The notes under the pieces are model-generated. The model did not search any database. It saw only the letters and a program-made list of their open reading frames with translations, and was not told the origin of the DNA. This document shows positions 39,181 through 45,183 of a stretch of DNA of 64,000 nt, piece after piece (positions within the stretch are counted from its first letter, which is position 1; the number at the start of each line of letters is the position of its first letter). The position numbers and the translations under genes are program-made. Origin of the DNA: Sedimenticola sp. (lineage in GTDB: Bacteria; Pseudomonadota; Gammaproteobacteria; Chromatiales; Chromatiaceae); assembly GCA_027068915.1 (NCBI GenBank), contig JAMOLT010000041.1, positions 977-64,976 of the forward strand, written 5' to 3'.

Positions 39181-39357
39181 TGTACTGCGTCGGAATTAAA
39201 GGAGCTTTCAGAGCCTCCCTTCGGGTGAGTCACAATGCGGCCATCTGCGGTGTCGTACTCGCTTGAAAGGGGGTGGCCCTTCCTGCGCGAGTACGCCTTG
39301 CATCTGGTCGCATTGTGACGCACTGAAAGGGCCTTTAATTCCGACGCAGTACACTAG
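39177..39357. mobile_element. 181-bp MITE, CTAG-ended family, one internal module
   Basis: 35-bp TIRs (33/35); same family as 23280-23540 but lacking its ~80-bp first module. Confidence 0.88.
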
Positions 39358-39892
39358 GATCCCAAAAGTTGCCTGAAGCCCCTGTGGGCGGCGGAGTGTT
39401 TGGGTCGAGACGAAGGAAGCGGATCACCCTTCCCTGATCATCCCGAAGGGCCAGGCGATTGTCCTGTAACCGGTATGCAAACTGCTGAATCTGCCCCGTG
39501 TCAGCATCAATCAGCTGGAGACGCCCTGGCTGGATTTTCACATAGAAATTTCTGTATTGCTCCCGTGACCAGTACATGCGGGCGTAGCCCCGTTTGATCG
39601 CTAGAAGAATACGGTTTTTGCTGACCCAGGCACCTTCCAGCAGTTTGGGCTGTTGCGGCAACAGAGAAGCGCCGCCAGGTGGTGCAGGATAGGGCGACAG
39701 GTGATGTTGATAGCCAAAGGGGGTGGAGGAATATCCTATATGCCCGGAGAAGTCCTGGTAGAGACGCATCGTTTCGAACATGCCCAGCATGAAACGCATC
39801 ATTTCTGCAAAGGGGCTGGCGTTGTTCCAGTTGCTGGCGCCTGCCGGCCCGATGAGCAGGAGCAGAAAGAGAACTTGTGCGGTTTTTTTCAC
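39335..39892 (-). CDS. exported hypothetical protein
   Basis: GTG start with signal peptide (KKTAQVLFLLLLIGPAGA), Pro/Tyr linker, beta-rich C-terminal domain; last codons lie inside the MITE. Confidence 0.7.
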   Translation of the reverse strand: MKKTAQVLFLLLLIGPAGASNWNNASPFAEMMRFMLGMFETMRLYQDFSGHIGYSSTPFGYQHHLSPYPAPPGGASLLPQQPKLLEGAWVSKNRILLAIKRGYARMYWSREQYRNFYVKIQPGRLQLIDADTGQIQQFAYRLQDNRLALRDDQGRVIRFLRLDPNTPPPTGASGNFWDPSVLRRN

Positions 39893-40005
39893 GGAAACGA
39901 CTGCTGGGCGGCTGTTGATTCGACAATTATAAAGCAATGATTAGACTCTTGAAAAAGTATGGAGTAAATTGTTTCGATTGTCCCGGAATCTGGAGGTTTA
40001 AGGCA

Positions 40006-40443
40006 TTGACTGGAGGGAAAAATAAAGATGGAGAATCACAGGAACTGCGCCGCGCCCTTGATGAGCTGCTGGCAGAGCGAAAACAGTTGCTGGCAGTTTT
40101 TTGCCAAGCGGCAAACGCCAGCCAGGAGCATAGTGAAGAAAGTCGTACCCAGCTTTTTGCGCGCCTTTGTCAGCTATTGATGGATTATGCCGCCTTGTGG
40201 CAATTCGAGATCCATGATGTGCTGGTGCATTCTGCGGCAGAGCATTCTACTGCGGTGAAGGCGCTGGAACTGCACCAGCCCGTTATCCAGCAGGCAGCGA
40301 ATAATGCCCTGGATTTCAATGATATGTTTGATATCTTTGTGCAAGAGGGAAAAACCCCCCAAATGGAATCCCGGTTGTCAGTTCTTGGTGAATCCCTGGC
40401 AAACCGTTTTGAAGCAGAAGATCAGATTGTCCTGAACCTTTGA
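40006..40443 (+). CDS. Rsd/AlgQ-like anti-sigma70 factor
   Basis: LAERKQLL..C, LCQLLMDY, ALDFND, LSVLGESLANRFEAEDQ; start uncertain (TTG 40006 after GGAGG; ORF open from 39937). Confidence 0.75.
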   Translation: MTGGKNKDGESQELRRALDELLAERKQLLAVFCQAANASQEHSEESRTQLFARLCQLLMDYAALWQFEIHDVLVHSAAEHSTAVKALELHQPVIQQAANNALDFNDMFDIFVQEGKTPQMESRLSVLGESLANRFEAEDQIVLNL

Positions 40444-40452
40444 GGAATAACC

Positions 40453-42756
40453 ATGGCGTTGCTTGATAGCTCGATTGACAAGAATTCAGCGGCATTGCTG
40501 CAGGATGAATTGATTGTCCCAAAAAGGAAGTCCCTGCGGCTGGATACCTTTCCCAGGGGAACGGACAATGCGCGCATCGATGTGCGCCTGGAGCCATCGT
40601 TGAAAGCAGCCATTGAAGCAAATGCACGCTCTAGTATGGCCCGGCATATGCGTACATGGCACCTGTCTGCAAGCAGCGAACTACTGGGTGAAGAGGAGGC
40701 GGCGGCCGAGCAGTTCCAGAAGGTGTTCAACAAGCTAAGCATCGTCACAGCGCAAAAGGCCAGAAAATCTTCCCGAAGAGAAGTGTATCAGCTGTTTATC
40801 CTTTCCGTGGTAAAGCAGATCTATCTGAGCGTGGATCAGCAATTGCGGGAATGCAGGGAAGATTTTGACGAGGATTCGCTCCTTGGTGAGACTTCTGCCA
40901 GTGGTCGGGTTTCCCGGCACGAAAAACTGTGGCGTTTCAGCCGGCACCAGTCCATGTTGCGCTATCTTGTGAGCCGTGAGCTCATTGAGCAGCTCCACAG
41001 TATGGAGCTGGTGGGTCGCAAACAGCGGAAAAGTGTGCTTGCCCTGTCATGGCCGGTTGCAGAGGAAATGCTGTTCAACCCCTTGTTGCAGCTGAGTGAT
41101 TTGAGCGATGAAGCAGCCTTTATCGAGATCTATCCCTTCCTGCTGATTAAGCCCAAGATGTTCAGAAATTTTGAGCGGCTGGTGCTGGACGTATTCTGTC
41201 ACTGGCTGCCGGACTGCCCGGTGCGACGGTTGTCGGAGCAGCAGAATGATGATCTGAATACATTGCAGCTGCGCCGGGACAAAGGGGATTTTCCTGCCTA
41301 TGCCCAGGTGGAGGCCTATCTGCGCGCAATCATGTCCCAATCCGAATACCAGCGGGCGGAAAACAGCTGGTTCGATGATCCCAGGAACCTGTCATGGCTG
41401 CTGGGAGGAGATGGGGACAAAGGGCGGCCTGGTTTCTGGGATGAGGAACGCTGGCATGGCTTCCAGGACAATTTGCTGCAGGAGCTGGAAAAAGCTTTCC
41501 ATAGAAACGGCCTGCTGGAAATGATTTTTGCCAGCGCCATGGTGCCTGACCTGTATCGCAGCCTTGGGCGCAAAGGTGCGTTACGCCTTCTTTACGAATA
41601 CCTGCTTGACGGGCGCAGCAAAAAGGAATTGCTGCCGATATTGCAGCAATTCAAGGATATTTCAGACCTGGATCTCTATGTTGAGCGTATGGATGTGGTG
41701 CGCAGGGAAATCAAGCAGGCCACCCCCGGTCAGCGCAGAAACTGGCTGATCAAGGTGCTGGAAGGCTACGCAAACCTGCGGCGGGATCTGAAGCTGTCCT
41801 GGGAGATGTACCGGGCCATGGATCTGATCCACCTTTTGGAGAAGCCCAAAGATTTGGCATTGTCCCGGGCAAACGCGTTGTTGCAGGAGTTTTCCCTGCA
41901 GCAGGAAGAGGAGGCGCCCGAGGTCAACGGACATGTTATTCTCAAGGCCGATCTGCGAGGTTCGACGGAACTGACCGCCACCATGATTAGGGAGGGATTA
42001 AACCCGGCAGCCTATTTCAGCCAGAATCTGTTTGATCCCATCAATACCTTGTTGCAGAAATATGGCGCCGAGAAGGTGTTTGTCGAAGGCGATGCGGTCA
42101 TTCTCATGATCCTGGATCAATCCAGCCCCCCCTCCCAGGTAGTAGCAAGAGCCTGTGGGCTGGCGTACGATATCATCGATCTCGTTATGCAACGAAATCG
42201 GGAAAGCCGGCAGATGGAGCTTCCTGAGCTGGAGCTGGGGATAGGGGTTTCCTATGTGGCCGAAGCGCCTTGCTATTTGTTTGACGCAGGGCGTAAAATA
42301 ACCATTTCCCCTGCTATTAACAGGGCTGATCGTCTCTCTTCCTGCACAGGACGTGATTTTATCGGATTTGGCGAAGAGCGGGCTTGGGGCGTGGAGGTCA
42401 TCAAGGTCGAACAGATTGCCAACAGTGTCTCAGGAGAAAGCCAATATTGCCGTTACAATGTGAATGGCATAGAACTGGATCTACCCGCATTCCAGCATCT
42501 GACAGAAGAGATGGTGTTGAAGAAGATAAAGGCATCCAGCTATGGGAAAGATACCGGCGATCATTATTATGTTGGTCGATTTCCTGATCTTTCCGGAAAA
42601 ACCCGATGGCAGGTATTGCGCCAGAGTATGGTCAAATACTGGGATGGAGGAAAGCTTCTGGCTCCTTCAGCGAAGAGTGGGGAAAGTTTTTACGAACTGG
42701 TTACAGATCCAGAAATACTAGGCCGGACACGGGAAAAGTTATCCGGTCGAAATTGA
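40453..42756 (+). CDS. large protein with a C-terminal class III nucleotidyl-cyclase-like domain
   Basis: ILKADLRGST, KVFVEGDAVIL, LGIGVS, ISPAINRADRL; N-terminal ~490 aa unrecognised. Confidence 0.8.
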   Translation: MALLDSSIDKNSAALLQDELIVPKRKSLRLDTFPRGTDNARIDVRLEPSLKAAIEANARSSMARHMRTWHLSASSELLGEEEAAAEQFQKVFNKLSIVTAQKARKSSRREVYQLFILSVVKQIYLSVDQQLRECREDFDEDSLLGETSASGRVSRHEKLWRFSRHQSMLRYLVSRELIEQLHSMELVGRKQRKSVLALSWPVAEEMLFNPLLQLSDLSDEAAFIEIYPFLLIKPKMFRNFERLVLDVFCHWLPDCPVRRLSEQQNDDLNTLQLRRDKGDFPAYAQVEAYLRAIMSQSEYQRAENSWFDDPRNLSWLLGGDGDKGRPGFWDEERWHGFQDNLLQELEKAFHRNGLLEMIFASAMVPDLYRSLGRKGALRLLYEYLLDGRSKKELLPILQQFKDISDLDLYVERMDVVRREIKQATPGQRRNWLIKVLEGYANLRRDLKLSWEMYRAMDLIHLLEKPKDLALSRANALLQEFSLQQEEEAPEVNGHVILKADLRGSTELTATMIREGLNPAAYFSQNLFDPINTLLQKYGAEKVFVEGDAVILMILDQSSPPSQVVARACGLAYDIIDLVMQRNRESRQMELPELELGIGVSYVAEAPCYLFDAGRKITISPAINRADRLSSCTGRDFIGFGEERAWGVEVIKVEQIANSVSGESQYCRYNVNGIELDLPAFQHLTEEMVLKKIKASSYGKDTGDHYYVGRFPDLSGKTRWQVLRQSMVKYWDGGKLLAPSAKSGESFYELVTDPEILGRTREKLSGRN

Positions 42757-42782
42757 ATTAGTTGCTCCTGTTCGGGACTGAG

Positions 42783-43187
42783 ATGGAGCATCGGGATGCT
42801 GCTATGTATGCCTGTAAGCATAAACTACACCGTGTAAAAACAATGCTGCGTGCGCAATTGAGCGTTCGTGGCGCCAACACCCAGTCAGTCCTTATTGAAC
42901 AAATCTCGGAAGCCGGACTGGATTTCTTGTGTGATGCCGGTGCGCAATGCCGGATCATGCCCGAAGAGCGAAAAATGCCCGGCCCGGTTTTTGGCGTGTA
43001 TGTGGACATCGTGTTCCGGCTGCCCAATTCCGACCGGGAGCTGCAGACGCGATGTCAGGTGCTGTTCTGTCATCGTCTTTCTCAAAACAGCTACCGGTTT
43101 GGTTGCGAATTTCATCAACTCGCCGATGCGAATCAGGAATTGTTGCAGGAGTTTCTGCAGCAGGCAGAGATTGAACTAGTTTCCTGA
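42783..43187 (+). CDS. PilZ-domain protein
   Basis: QISEAG (D/NxSxxG-like), C-terminal YRFGCEF..L..LLQEFL; start uncertain (42762/42783/42804). Confidence 0.7.
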   Translation: MEHRDAAMYACKHKLHRVKTMLRAQLSVRGANTQSVLIEQISEAGLDFLCDAGAQCRIMPEERKMPGPVFGVYVDIVFRLPNSDRELQTRCQVLFCHRLSQNSYRFGCEFHQLADANQELLQEFLQQAEIELVS

Positions 43188-43203: not shown

Positions 43204-45183
43204 CTATAAAGCTGTACTGTCAGTGGCCTCTGTTTGGGCGGTCTTCTCCGCCTCGGTTCCCAGTATCGGCAGCATCCGCTCTGACAGCCGCGTAAGCTTG
43301 CGTTTCAGGCGGTGGTCATAAATTGCGGCGTAGGTAAATACCCGCTTTACATAGCCTTTTGTCTCATTGAAAGGGATCAATTCTACCCAGATATCAGCAG
43401 GCAGGCGGGATTTTGGCAGCCAGCGTTTTACCCTGTGCGGGCCTGCATTGTAGGCGGCAGTCGCCAGCACCGGGTTTTCTCCAAGAGTGGACAGCACATA
43501 TGCGAGGTAGGTGGTTCCTAGTTCAATATTGATTTTTGGAGAAATCAGATCTCTGTGCCTGGGTGATTTCTTTTTCTTTAGCAGTTTCTTCGATACATAT
43601 TTGGCGGTAGCCGGCATGAGCTGCATCAGTCCCACGGCACCTGCAAAAGAGCGCACACTGGCATTGAATGCGCTTTCCTGTCGGATTACGCCGTAAACCC
43701 AGGAAATGTCCAGCTTGTTTTTCTTCGCGTAGTGCTGCACATCCGGTTTGTGCTCCAGGGGGAATCGCAGTTCCAGATCATCCCAGAAACCAGATTTGGC
43801 CAGGGTGAAGATTGCCTGATCATGCCAGTCCCATGATTGCGCCAACTCGGCAGCGGCAATGTATTCCTCCGTGCTGAGGTCACGGGTGGCGAAGCGCCAT
43901 TCACGGCGGGCATCCACCCAGCGGTTCAGCGCCAGCAGTTCCCTGGTTCTGGCTACCGCCGGATCATTACTGATTGCCGTAGCAATATCTTTTTCCACAA
44001 TACCCTTTCCCGGAGCAAACCGATAGGTTTCGCCAATCCGATCGGCGGCGAGAAAACCGTAGTAGCTGCGCTCGCTGACCAGTTCGCTATACAGCGCGTT
44101 CGCCTGGGATTGCTGGCGGGTCTGTTCCAGCGCCCGCGCCAGCCAGTACCGCCAGCGTTCGCTCTGCTGCTCTTTCTGCGGCATTTGGCCGATTCTGGAG
44201 ATCACCTGGCTCCAGTCGCTATGGAGCAGGGCGGATTCGACCAGCGCTTCCTGGAGCTTGCTGTCATGGCCGCAGGGCTGAAGAGCGGACATGAAATCAG
44301 CGGCAACCGGATCTTCATTGCGTGTCAGCCACAGTGCGAGCTTGCGATTGACCAGATGCTGATTCAGGGTGGAAATGGCAAAGTGCTGTTGCAGTTTATT
44401 CCAGTAGCTCAACGCCGCCAGAGGGTTCTTTCTGATTTGCCGGTAGGCGGCATCCACCAGGATTTCCTGACGCTGAGGGTGCTCTTTCTTCAGTGTCGGA
44501 TCTGTAAAGACCAGGGCAGGCTTGCCATGTACCTTGATCCAGGTGTTTACCCAGGGGCGATCCTTGGCGGGAAGGGATTTCTTCAAATAGCGGGCAAGTT
44601 TGATCTGTCCCTTGTCCATGGCCAGAGCAATGCGTTGCCAGACCAGCCTGGTGGTCAGCAGACCGGCTTCACGCCAGGACTTGAATACCGGGTCACAGGC
44701 TTTTGGTCTTGATTTTCCGTGCAGCCATATAGGCTCAACCTGTGAAAAAGCGCGTTTTTTCTCGCCGGTGTAAATCAGCGCCTGCAAATAGTGGCACTGG
44801 CGACTGATGTTGGATTGCGGGGTATAGAACCGTATGTAGCTCTTCCAGTCCTGGCGATTGGCCAGTACATTCAGCCAGCGGGCGCGCAGCAAGGCTGCCA
44901 GTGGCGTATGCTCATTCTTTTCGAGAAAATCAGCGACTTCCTGGTTTTTTACTGTTCCCAGCCTGTGCTTGAGCCGGGCGTATTCCAGATAGGGATAAAG
45001 AGGATAGTTGCGCAGCAGGGAATCCATATTGCCAGGCAGGGTTTTGCCTGCCGCTGCGATTTTCTCCGCACCCAGAAACAGCTTGCGCTGCGCTTCCTGG
45101 GCGATAGTGCCGGCACTGGCGTTTGCTGCCAGCAACAGTATTCCAGCCAGGGTGATATCGATTATTCTGTGCCGGGCAATCAT
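43204..45183 (-). CDS. slt: soluble lytic murein transglycosylase Slt70
   Basis: YPLYPYLEY, IRQESAF (catalytic Glu), GLMQLMP, AAYNAGP, ETKGYV. Confidence 0.95.
   Translation of the reverse strand: MIARHRIIDITLAGILLLAANASAGTIAQEAQRKLFLGAEKIAAAGKTLPGNMDSLLRNYPLYPYLEYARLKHRLGTVKNQEVADFLEKNEHTPLAALLRARWLNVLANRQDWKSYIRFYTPQSNISRQCHYLQALIYTGEKKRAFSQVEPIWLHGKSRPKACDPVFKSWREAGLLTTRLVWQRIALAMDKGQIKLARYLKKSLPAKDRPWVNTWIKVHGKPALVFTDPTLKKEHPQRQEILVDAAYRQIRKNPLAALSYWNKLQQHFAISTLNQHLVNRKLALWLTRNEDPVAADFMSALQPCGHDSKLQEALVESALLHSDWSQVISRIGQMPQKEQQSERWRYWLARALEQTRQQSQANALYSELVSERSYYGFLAADRIGETYRFAPGKGIVEKDIATAISNDPAVARTRELLALNRWVDARREWRFATRDLSTEEYIAAAELAQSWDWHDQAIFTLAKSGFWDDLELRFPLEHKPDVQHYAKKNKLDISWVYGVIRQESAFNASVRSFAGAVGLMQLMPATAKYVSKKLLKKKKSPRHRDLISPKINIELGTTYLAYVLSTLGENPVLATAAYNAGPHRVKRWLPKSRLPADIWVELIPFNETKGYVKRVFTYAAIYDHRLKRKLTRLSERMLPILGTEAEKTAQTEATDSTAL

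Follow-up and report, generated by a model that had tools for sequence, protein, structure and literature searches.

The DNA studied here is a 64,000-nucleotide stretch (the window) of contig JAMOLT010000041.1 (positions 977 to 64,976, forward strand) from assembly GCA_027068915.1, deposited as Sedimenticola sp.; the closest database relatives come from Thiolapillus. Within the window, three consecutive plus-strand genes encode an Rsd-like protein, a protein of 767 amino acids (aa) and a stand-alone PilZ-domain protein. Our analyses identified the 767-aa protein as soluble and, from its predicted structure and from profile comparisons, as the carrier of a diverged class III cyclase-type domain at residues ~486–690. 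The explanation that we favor, with moderate confidence, is that this protein would be a soluble, dimeric, two-metal nucleoside triphosphate (NTP) cyclase that has a pocket of non-purine type, is regulated through a new helical domain and operates as a stand-alone unit. The three-gene cluster itself is, as judged from its distribution, a young, genus-level arrangement and not a conserved signaling system.

An earlier note on this DNA had claimed that the three genes are co-directional and close together, and their open reading frames (ORFs) confirmed this. The genes, and the parts of the 767-aa protein, are placed in the window as follows.

40006..40443, plus strand: rsd-like gene, 145 aa from TTG 40006 (the alternative ATG 39937 would give 168 aa)
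40453..42756, plus strand: 767-aa cyclase-like gene, starting 9 bp past the rsd stop codon
40453..41907, plus strand: N-terminal domain, residues 1–485 (AlphaFold2 model, alignment, profile)
41908..42522, plus strand: diverged class III nucleotidyl-cyclase homology domain, residues 486–690 (Foldseek, hhalign, residue counts)
42523..42756, plus strand: C-terminal beta-rich extension, residues 691–767 and the stop codon (secondary structure of the model; family-specific)
42762 or 42783..43187, plus strand: stand-alone PilZ-domain gene (TTG 42762, 141 aa; ATG 42783, 134 aa)

Identification of the cyclase-type domain

The 767-aa protein had no match in Pfam, NCBIfam, the sequences of the PDB or PADLOC, and a profile of 26 family members was likewise without a match in the sequence libraries. 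When the canonical model PF00211 was compared with the 26 members, no match was obtained at E ≤ 1. The class III relation emerged from structure prediction. An AlphaFold2 model of the full-length protein, built on the 26 homologues, had a predicted local distance difference test score (pLDDT) of 82, and the top 50 matches to this model in a Foldseek search of the PDB were all class III adenylyl or guanylyl cyclases. These matches, among them CyaC (1WC0), Rv1625c, CyaB, Cya2 and rhodopsin-GC, covered the C-terminal part of the protein, with E values down to 1e-6, a probability of 1.00 and template modeling (TM) scores of 0.65–0.71 on the target. In sequence the relation could be detected solely by profile-profile comparison, in which hhalign aligned residues 491–634 with a profile built from the canonical PF00211 domains, 14 in number, of related genomes (89% probability, E 2e-6). 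Transmembrane-level hydrophobicity was not reached anywhere in the protein, the maximum Kyte-Doolittle value being 1.13.

Together, the Foldseek, hhalign, hydropathy and library results bear out the proposal of the earlier note that a soluble, unrecognized N-terminal region is followed by a cyclase domain. A literature search returned no paper on this cyclase-like family; the DUF2652 cyclase-like proteins (PMC4886424) and AdvA belong to different families.

Active-site residues and proposed mechanism

The hhalign alignment enabled the catalytic and specificity positions of class III cyclases to be mapped onto the protein, all on the plus strand.

41950-41952: D500, metal Asp, motif KADLRGST (hhalign column mapping)
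42079-42081: F543, at the Lys/Glu specificity position (hhalign column mapping)
42091-42093: D547, metal Asp, motif EGDA (hhalign column mapping)
42298-42300: I616, at the Asp/Thr/Cys specificity position (hhalign column mapping)
42319-42321: N623, Asn of the Asn-x3-Arg pair, motif NRADR
42331-42333: R627, Arg of the Asn-x3-Arg pair, motif NRADR

Residues were counted in 189 distinct family members. Both metal aspartates, D500 and D547, together with K541, E545, D611 and N669, were present in 189/189. The residues at the base-specifying positions were almost as constant, with Phe at 543 in 188 members and Ile at 616 in 185, and they correspond to neither of the pairs that specify a purine (Lys with Asp/Thr for ATP; Glu with Cys/Ser/Gly for GTP). 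Since the base pocket is thus neither of the adenylyl nor of the guanylyl type, the identity of the product is not deducible from sequence, and cyclic AMP (cAMP) is the default guess. A different set of specificity residues has been described for the cytidylate cyclase EaPycC, in which they lie two residues before the first metal Asp and four and two residues before the second (PMC11224242). In the 767-aa protein these positions are occupied by K498, F543 and E545, of which K498 and E545 are invariant.

The columns that were at least 97% conserved fell mostly within the cyclase domain (47 of its 205 positions), compared to 14 of 485 in the N-terminal domain and none of 77 in the C-terminal extension. 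As conservation is thus strongest in the cyclase domain and both metal aspartates are kept, we read this domain as probably an active two-metal enzyme with an altered base pocket. The cyclase domain of the earlier note is therefore a genuine and strongly constrained one, whose base-pocket residues (F543 and I616) are non-standard. One family member differed locally from all others: L111 (Candidatus Endoriftia persephone, AASF01002167.1) has SPLVL in place of N-R-A-D-R, and since the assembly is an old draft, a local frameshift is the probable cause.

In the mechanism that we propose, the enzyme would be a head-to-tail homodimer, as other class III cyclases are, in which the invariant D500 and D547 would hold two divalent metals. 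The Asn/Arg pair on the following helix, N623 with R627 or R624, would aid the attack of the 3'-OH on the alpha-phosphate of the NTP. The pocket would be shaped by F543 and I616 in place of Lys/Glu and Asp/Thr/Cys, with K498 and E545 at the positions that determine specificity in pyrimidine cyclases, and the N-terminal domain would set the activity through a connecting helix. It is from the observed genes, fold, residue conservation and distribution that we infer catalysis, dimerization and regulation.

Several findings weigh against this interpretation. The canonical Asn and Arg are variable, position 623 being Asn in 156/189 members, His in 23 and Gly in 9, and position 627 being Arg in 149/189 and Gln in 36/189, so that the chemistry may differ from that of textbook cyclases. 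In addition, the domain is too diverged in sequence for any PF00211 match, and cyclase-like folds can be non-catalytic, AdvA being an example (bioRxiv 10.64898/2026.04.03.716176). Genomes of the genus also encode one short CYTH protein each (G000:C5:18612-19034 in that of the window), and this protein could be the actual source of cAMP. Finally, the genus-stable packing of rsd, cyclase and PilZ genes, with PilZ retained down to 41% identity of the cyclase, leaves room for a genuine local functional link, to which our reading may give too little weight. On the variability at position 627, all members with Gln627 carry Arg624, and one Arg is always retained at the start of the helix; this covariation of Q627 with R624 is, on the alignment, a compensatory pattern that would keep one Arg.

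The N-terminal helical domain and its LspA-like fusions

The N-terminal domain (residues 1–485) was also modeled alone, on 36 homologues, and AlphaFold2 predicted a confident, all-helical structure (pLDDT 86.6, predicted TM score 0.88). A long helix, residues 425–457 (41725-41823), runs from this domain into the catalytic domain, and six residues of the N-terminal domain are invariant (G36, D38, D43, R192, D308 and N474). Foldseek found no credible match to its fold in the PDB, the best having an E value of 0.24 and a probability of 0.15. The region that the earlier note had called unrecognized is hence a helical domain without a PDB match.

In a collection of 1.84 billion proteins, a profile of the N-terminal domain retrieved 458 clusters (50% identity), of which 320 were at E ≤ 1e-10. 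Most of the proteins in these clusters were 740–830 aa, which indicates that the domain is almost confined to the architecture of an N-terminal domain joined to a cyclase domain. However, about 21 of the best 150 relatives were longer, at 890–950 aa, with the N-terminal domain beginning near residue 160. A true Rsd-cyclase fusion would strongly favor a reading in which the three genes form a module, and such a fusion was suspected as the additional ~155 aa are Rsd-sized. This was rejected, as the extension proved to be a diverged signal peptidase II, the four-helix membrane domain of LspA (PF01252). The fusion was present in several gammaproteobacterial families of the class-level sample described below, and genomes that bear it also keep a normal stand-alone lspA, which scored ~150 bits compared to 29–67 bits for the fused copy.

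Fused copies were located at L132:5383-8277, L133:5137-8337, L135:5455-8229, L136:5968-8745 (minus strand) and L143:382-3177, and the fused proteins were P0136, P0155, P0158, P0159, P0176 and P0240. Within this set the catalytic Asp positions were retained in some copies and lost in others.

Cyclic nucleotide supply in Thiolapillus

Each of the Thiolapillus genomes (G000, G401-G412) encodes 11–15 domains of the cyclic nucleoside monophosphate (cNMP)-binding type, and whole-genome scans of these genomes found no class I cyclase (PF01295) and no canonical PF00211 cyclase. With cNMP-binding domains present and neither kind of cyclase to supply them, a source of cyclic nucleotide is needed. A cyclase function for the 767-aa protein would thus be useful to the cell, although usefulness is no proof. 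We had considered that the 767-aa protein was the only possible cyclase in the genome, and this candidate explanation was weakened by the presence of the short CYTH protein, these two proteins being the only candidate cyclases of the genus.

These counts are also the basis of a narrower version of our favored explanation, in which the 767-aa protein would be the housekeeping adenylyl cyclase of the genus and make cAMP for CRP-family regulators. We regard this special case as possible but doubtful. Database sources label relatives of the protein as "class 3 adenylate cyclase", and class III cyclases with atypical specificity residues, such as mycobacterial enzymes, can make cAMP. Against this, the Lys and Asp/Thr that specify adenine are replaced by a near-invariant Phe and Ile, and many of the cNMP_binding matches are likely to be FNR-type regulators that bind no nucleotide. 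Moreover, an enzyme of the 767-aa type co-occurs with a class I cyclase in a sister genus, which indicates that the two are not simple substitutes, and the CYTH protein is also present.

Family distribution and gene neighborhood

The cyclase-like family was present in 17 of 400 evenly sampled Gammaproteobacteria genomes, representing ~10 families, and species-representative genomes held at least 576 family loci. Its hosts include Sedimenticola, Thiodiazotropha, Endoriftia, Thiolapillus, Chromatiaceae, Thiomargarita, Thioploca, Achromatium and metagenome-assembled genomes (MAGs) of Nitrospirota.

In the window, the three genes are packed between a divergent gene for an exported protein and a convergent Slt70-type gene, and the wider surroundings are core genome, with obg, proB and tauE on the upstream side and slt, sel1 and aroG on the downstream side.

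39335..39937, minus strand: small exported-protein gene, divergent (hydrophobic N-terminus, alignment)
39920..39947, plus strand: sigma-70-like promoter match, TCGACA-16-TAGACT (consensus scan, 9/12 positions; not evidence of function)
43204..45183, minus strand: Slt70-type soluble lytic murein transglycosylase, convergent (PF01464, PF14718, NCBIfam PRK11619 E 1.6e-112)

The promoter-like match precedes rsd and falls in the intergenic region that this gene and the divergent exported-protein gene have in common, and a sequence scan for terminator-like sites on the plus strand inside the three-gene cluster saw none. The Slt70 protein also had an above-threshold Pfam match (30 bits, in its superhelical region) to the Cucumovirus coat protein family PF00760; this match is surely spurious, and the T. 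brandeum orthologue is recorded with the same one.

To survey the neighbors of the enzyme gene we used the best 80 loci, which are biased to close relatives of the query, with ORFs called by a simple in-house procedure and neighbors searched iteratively. The counts below are out of the loci whose flanking sequence was long enough.

Rsd-like gene, directly upstream, same strand as the enzyme gene: 51/74 loci
Exported-protein gene, upstream, opposite strand to the enzyme gene: 55/69 loci
slt, downstream of the enzyme gene, convergent: 51/65 loci
PilZ gene, downstream of the enzyme gene: 8/72 loci

The adjacency of rsd was no better kept than that of genes that cannot share its transcript, which speaks against a dedicated module. 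A universal gene partner was sought in Chromatiaceae, Thiotrichaceae, Nitrospirota and other gammaproteobacterial families, and none was found. Based on these neighborhoods, we consider the enzyme an old stand-alone unit without a universal gene partner. The survey also showed that the three genes are co-conserved within the genus only and not across lineages, contrary to what the earlier note would have led one to expect.

The exported-protein gene was the most widely kept neighbor of the enzyme gene, in a link that is wider than that of rsd and includes Chromatiaceae and Achromatium. Its product, which has no Pfam or NCBIfam match, combines a signal peptide and a Met-rich helix (consensus MAxAMxxMMDAMG) with a linker rich in Pro and Gly and a beta domain that is conserved. 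In four Nitrospirota MAGs (L094, L101, L104 and L107) the order on a single strand is mltG (YceG), the cyclase-like gene and a gene for a PF01676 metalloenzyme. The Nitrospirota proteins were sister to those of Thiotrichaceae (Thiomargarita, Thioploca) in the tree, with full support, and this placement suggests a transfer between phyla.

The frequency of envelope-related genes in these neighborhoods raises an alternative that we hold to be unlikely, namely that the cyclase-like domain, like that of AdvA, serves as a scaffold without catalytic activity and that the protein would act in cell-envelope processes by way of protein contacts. The convergent slt, the exported protein and, in Nitrospirota, mltG directly upstream would all fit such a role, as would the sub-group fused to a diverged LspA membrane domain and the non-invariance of the canonical Asn and Arg, and a cyclase-like fold with a non-enzymatic role in cell division has been described before, in AdvA of Acinetobacter (bioRxiv 10.64898/2026.04.03.716176). 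On the other hand, AdvA lacks catalytic residues, while in the family studied here both metal aspartates are present in every member, an Arg is always found at 624 or 627, and no other part of the protein is as constrained as this domain. The genes for Slt and the exported protein also belong to other transcription units, and synteny alone may account for the envelope link.

The Rsd gene

The first gene of the cluster was assigned to the Rsd/AlgQ family, in agreement with the earlier note, by a match to PF04353 (E 1.2e-26, 93.9 bits compared to a cut-off of 35) and by a full-length alignment to the E. coli Rsd structures 4XWJ and 2P7V (residues 16–143, E 1e-5). Its score against the NCBIfam sigma D regulator model, 81 bits, was under the equivalog cut-off of 139. 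A GGAGG is located 9 nt before TTG 40006, and the resulting 145 aa is the size of the homologues.

The genome of the window, which is 99.99% complete, contained exactly one Rsd_AlgQ match, at this locus, and as a single copy this rsd must serve the housekeeping duty. All 12 of the other species of the genus carry the enzyme; an rsd above the Pfam cut-off adjoins it in nine of them and was never found elsewhere in the genome. Three genomes of the genus, two of which are >90% complete, had no rsd above that cut-off. In three loci within the clade (L035, L036 and L040) there was no rsd between the exported-protein and enzyme genes; L036 and L040 retain the PilZ gene, and the sequence of L035 ends with the enzyme gene.

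More widely, the tree placed rsd next to the enzyme gene chiefly in Sedimenticolaceae and close allies, as part of a larger syntenic block. Among the 17 enzyme-bearing genomes of the class-level sample, rsd was absent in eight, elsewhere (on another contig or far away) in seven and adjacent in two. The spacing between the two genes was 6–13 bp in the Thiolapillus clade; outside it, the spacing was typically 100–300 bp and up to ~1 kb. Taken together, these data point to an ordinary single-copy anti-sigma-70 gene that is a family-level neighbor of the enzyme and appears to be translationally coupled to it in Thiolapillus.

Two loci had unusual structures. In a Candidatus Thiodiazotropha chromosome (L099, OZ242974.1), rsd is separated from the cyclase-like gene by ~5 kb of extra genes; the cyclase-like gene matches over residues 311–767 only and appears disrupted. 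In Candidatus Vondammii (L001), transposase genes flank the rsd-enzyme pair.

The PilZ gene

The third ORF matched PF07238 above the cut-off (E 5.5e-8, 33.5 bits compared to 22.5), as expected from its description in the earlier note as a stand-alone PilZ. However, its motifs for binding cyclic di-GMP (c-di-GMP) are degenerate (H20-K-L-H-R24 and Q47-I-S49-E-A-G52), whereas four further PilZ domains encoded by this genome have complete R-x3-R and D/N-x-S-x2-G motifs. In seven PilZ orthologues, R24 and G52 were the only motif residues that are invariant. Three cysteines, C57, C98 and C103, are also invariant, the last two as C-x4-C, and this trio may be a metal or redox site. These residue patterns make c-di-GMP binding in the usual mode unlikely, and the PilZ protein is more likely to serve as an adaptor that binds other proteins, or to regulate the enzyme locally, than to be a c-di-GMP receptor.

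A profile search for this PilZ subfamily in 60 genera of the family found it in the genus of the window only. The loci with PilZ form one clade (100% support), inside which Rsd was lost, and PilZ was downstream of the enzyme gene in every locus of this genus clade that has downstream sequence, down to 41% identity of the cyclase. The PilZ gene is, on this distribution, a young genus-specific addition to the locus.

Do the three genes form a signaling module?

The earlier note had proposed that the three genes form a signaling module, in which the cyclase would make a possibly non-standard nucleotide, the PilZ protein would bind it and Rsd would pass the signal to sigma-70 and transcription. 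The compactness of the cluster stood up well. The gaps are 9 bp between rsd and the 767-aa gene and 5–26 bp between that gene and PilZ, depending on the PilZ start, and a Shine-Dalgarno-like GAGGAA upstream of the 767-aa gene overlaps the rsd stop codon; the cluster is probably co-translated in Thiolapillus. Its gene order is identical in the cultured T. brandeum (AP012273.1) and in 9 of the 12 other genomes of the genus. The non-standard base pocket of the enzyme would also suit the module, as would a PilZ that is kept beside even distant enzymes of the clade and is conserved, with its three invariant cysteines, despite its lost c-di-GMP motifs, since such a protein could bind something else.

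The module as such was unsupported, with rsd and PilZ being lineage-specific and no neighbor shared by the distant loci, and we consider it quite improbable. The sole rsd of the genome has its housekeeping duty to serve, and L035, L036 and L040 have no rsd at the locus but keep PilZ where downstream sequence exists. Outside the genus rsd is usually separated from the enzyme gene by the wider gaps given above, and most enzyme-bearing Gammaproteobacteria of the class sample either lack it (8/17) or have it elsewhere (7/17). The PilZ subfamily is limited to one of 60 genera, and we know of no PilZ that reads a cyclic mononucleotide. Any interaction among the three proteins would be, like the catalysis, a matter of inference from their genes.

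Implications

Should the enzyme prove active, sequence models would have missed a large branch of the class III cyclases, spread over hundreds of species, and this branch would have a base pocket that is neither adenylyl nor guanylyl in type and a regulatory domain without structural precedent. Many of its hosts are sulfur-oxidizing free-living bacteria and animal symbionts (Thiodiazotropha, Endoriftia). In Thiolapillus, the enzyme may be the sole source of cyclic nucleotide for about eleven cNMP-binding proteins, and the LspA-like fusion found in sister lineages would provide a cyclase with a membrane module of a new type. The proposed module of three genes is of lesser weight, as it is a genus-level arrangement.

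A bolder extension, which we rate as the least probable of the readings presented here, is that the family is a new class III branch whose messenger is neither cAMP nor cyclic GMP but, for instance, a cyclic pyrimidine or another NTP-derived product. The base would then be chosen by K498, F543, E545 and I616, the N-terminal domain, coupled to the envelope, would control the enzyme, and the motif-degenerate PilZ of Thiolapillus would have been recruited as the dedicated receptor of the messenger or as a regulator of the enzyme.

Comparison with known systems

The 767-aa protein shares its fold with the class IIIa/b cyclases (Spirulina CyaC 1WC0, Mycobacterium tuberculosis Rv1625c, Pseudomonas aeruginosa CyaB and Synechocystis Cya2), and the metal Asp pair, the Asn-x3-Arg helix and the long lead-in helix are placed alike. 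It differs from them in having no PF00211 match, in the replacement of Lys/Glu by Phe and of Asp/Thr/Cys by Ile, and in the invariants that are the family's own (K498, K541, E545, N517, D611, D626 and N669). It also adds a 480-aa N-terminal domain without a PDB match and a C-terminal beta extension.

The Pycsar enzyme PycC similarly has a class III-type core in which the base is not chosen by the classical Lys/Asp pair (PMC11224242), as we propose here. Unlike Pycsar systems, the locus has no adjoining effector with a cyclic-nucleotide-binding, TIR or transmembrane domain, and the 767-aa protein is much larger, has a dedicated N-terminal domain and is found in a syntenic, core-genome setting. 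A Pycsar-like role in defense was rejected based on this housekeeping syntenic context and the lack of a PADLOC match for any of the four locus proteins.

AdvA/PA4961 is similar in that it has a diverged cyclase-like fold missed by sequence models, C-terminal additions and possible envelope links (bioRxiv 10.64898/2026.04.03.716176). In contrast to the 767-aa protein, which is soluble and whose metal Asp pair is found family-wide, AdvA is membrane-anchored and has neither catalytic residues nor the dimerization arm.

The Rsd of the window resembles E. coli Rsd and Pseudomonas AlgQ in its Pfam family, its full-length alignment and its single copy, but it scores below the NCBI equivalog cut-off (81 compared to 139 bits) and appears, in Thiolapillus, to be translationally coupled to a cyclase-like gene. 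For the third gene, the nearest parallel is PilZ (PA2960) of Pseudomonas and its Xanthomonas homologue, which are PilZ proteins that do not bind c-di-GMP. The PilZ of the window is comparable in having a stand-alone fold without intact RxxxR and D/NxSxxG motifs and is probably, as they are, a protein-binding adaptor; it differs from the PA2960 type in belonging to an unrelated, genus-restricted subfamily that has three invariant cysteines and whose gene lies beside a cyclase-like gene, not beside pilus genes.

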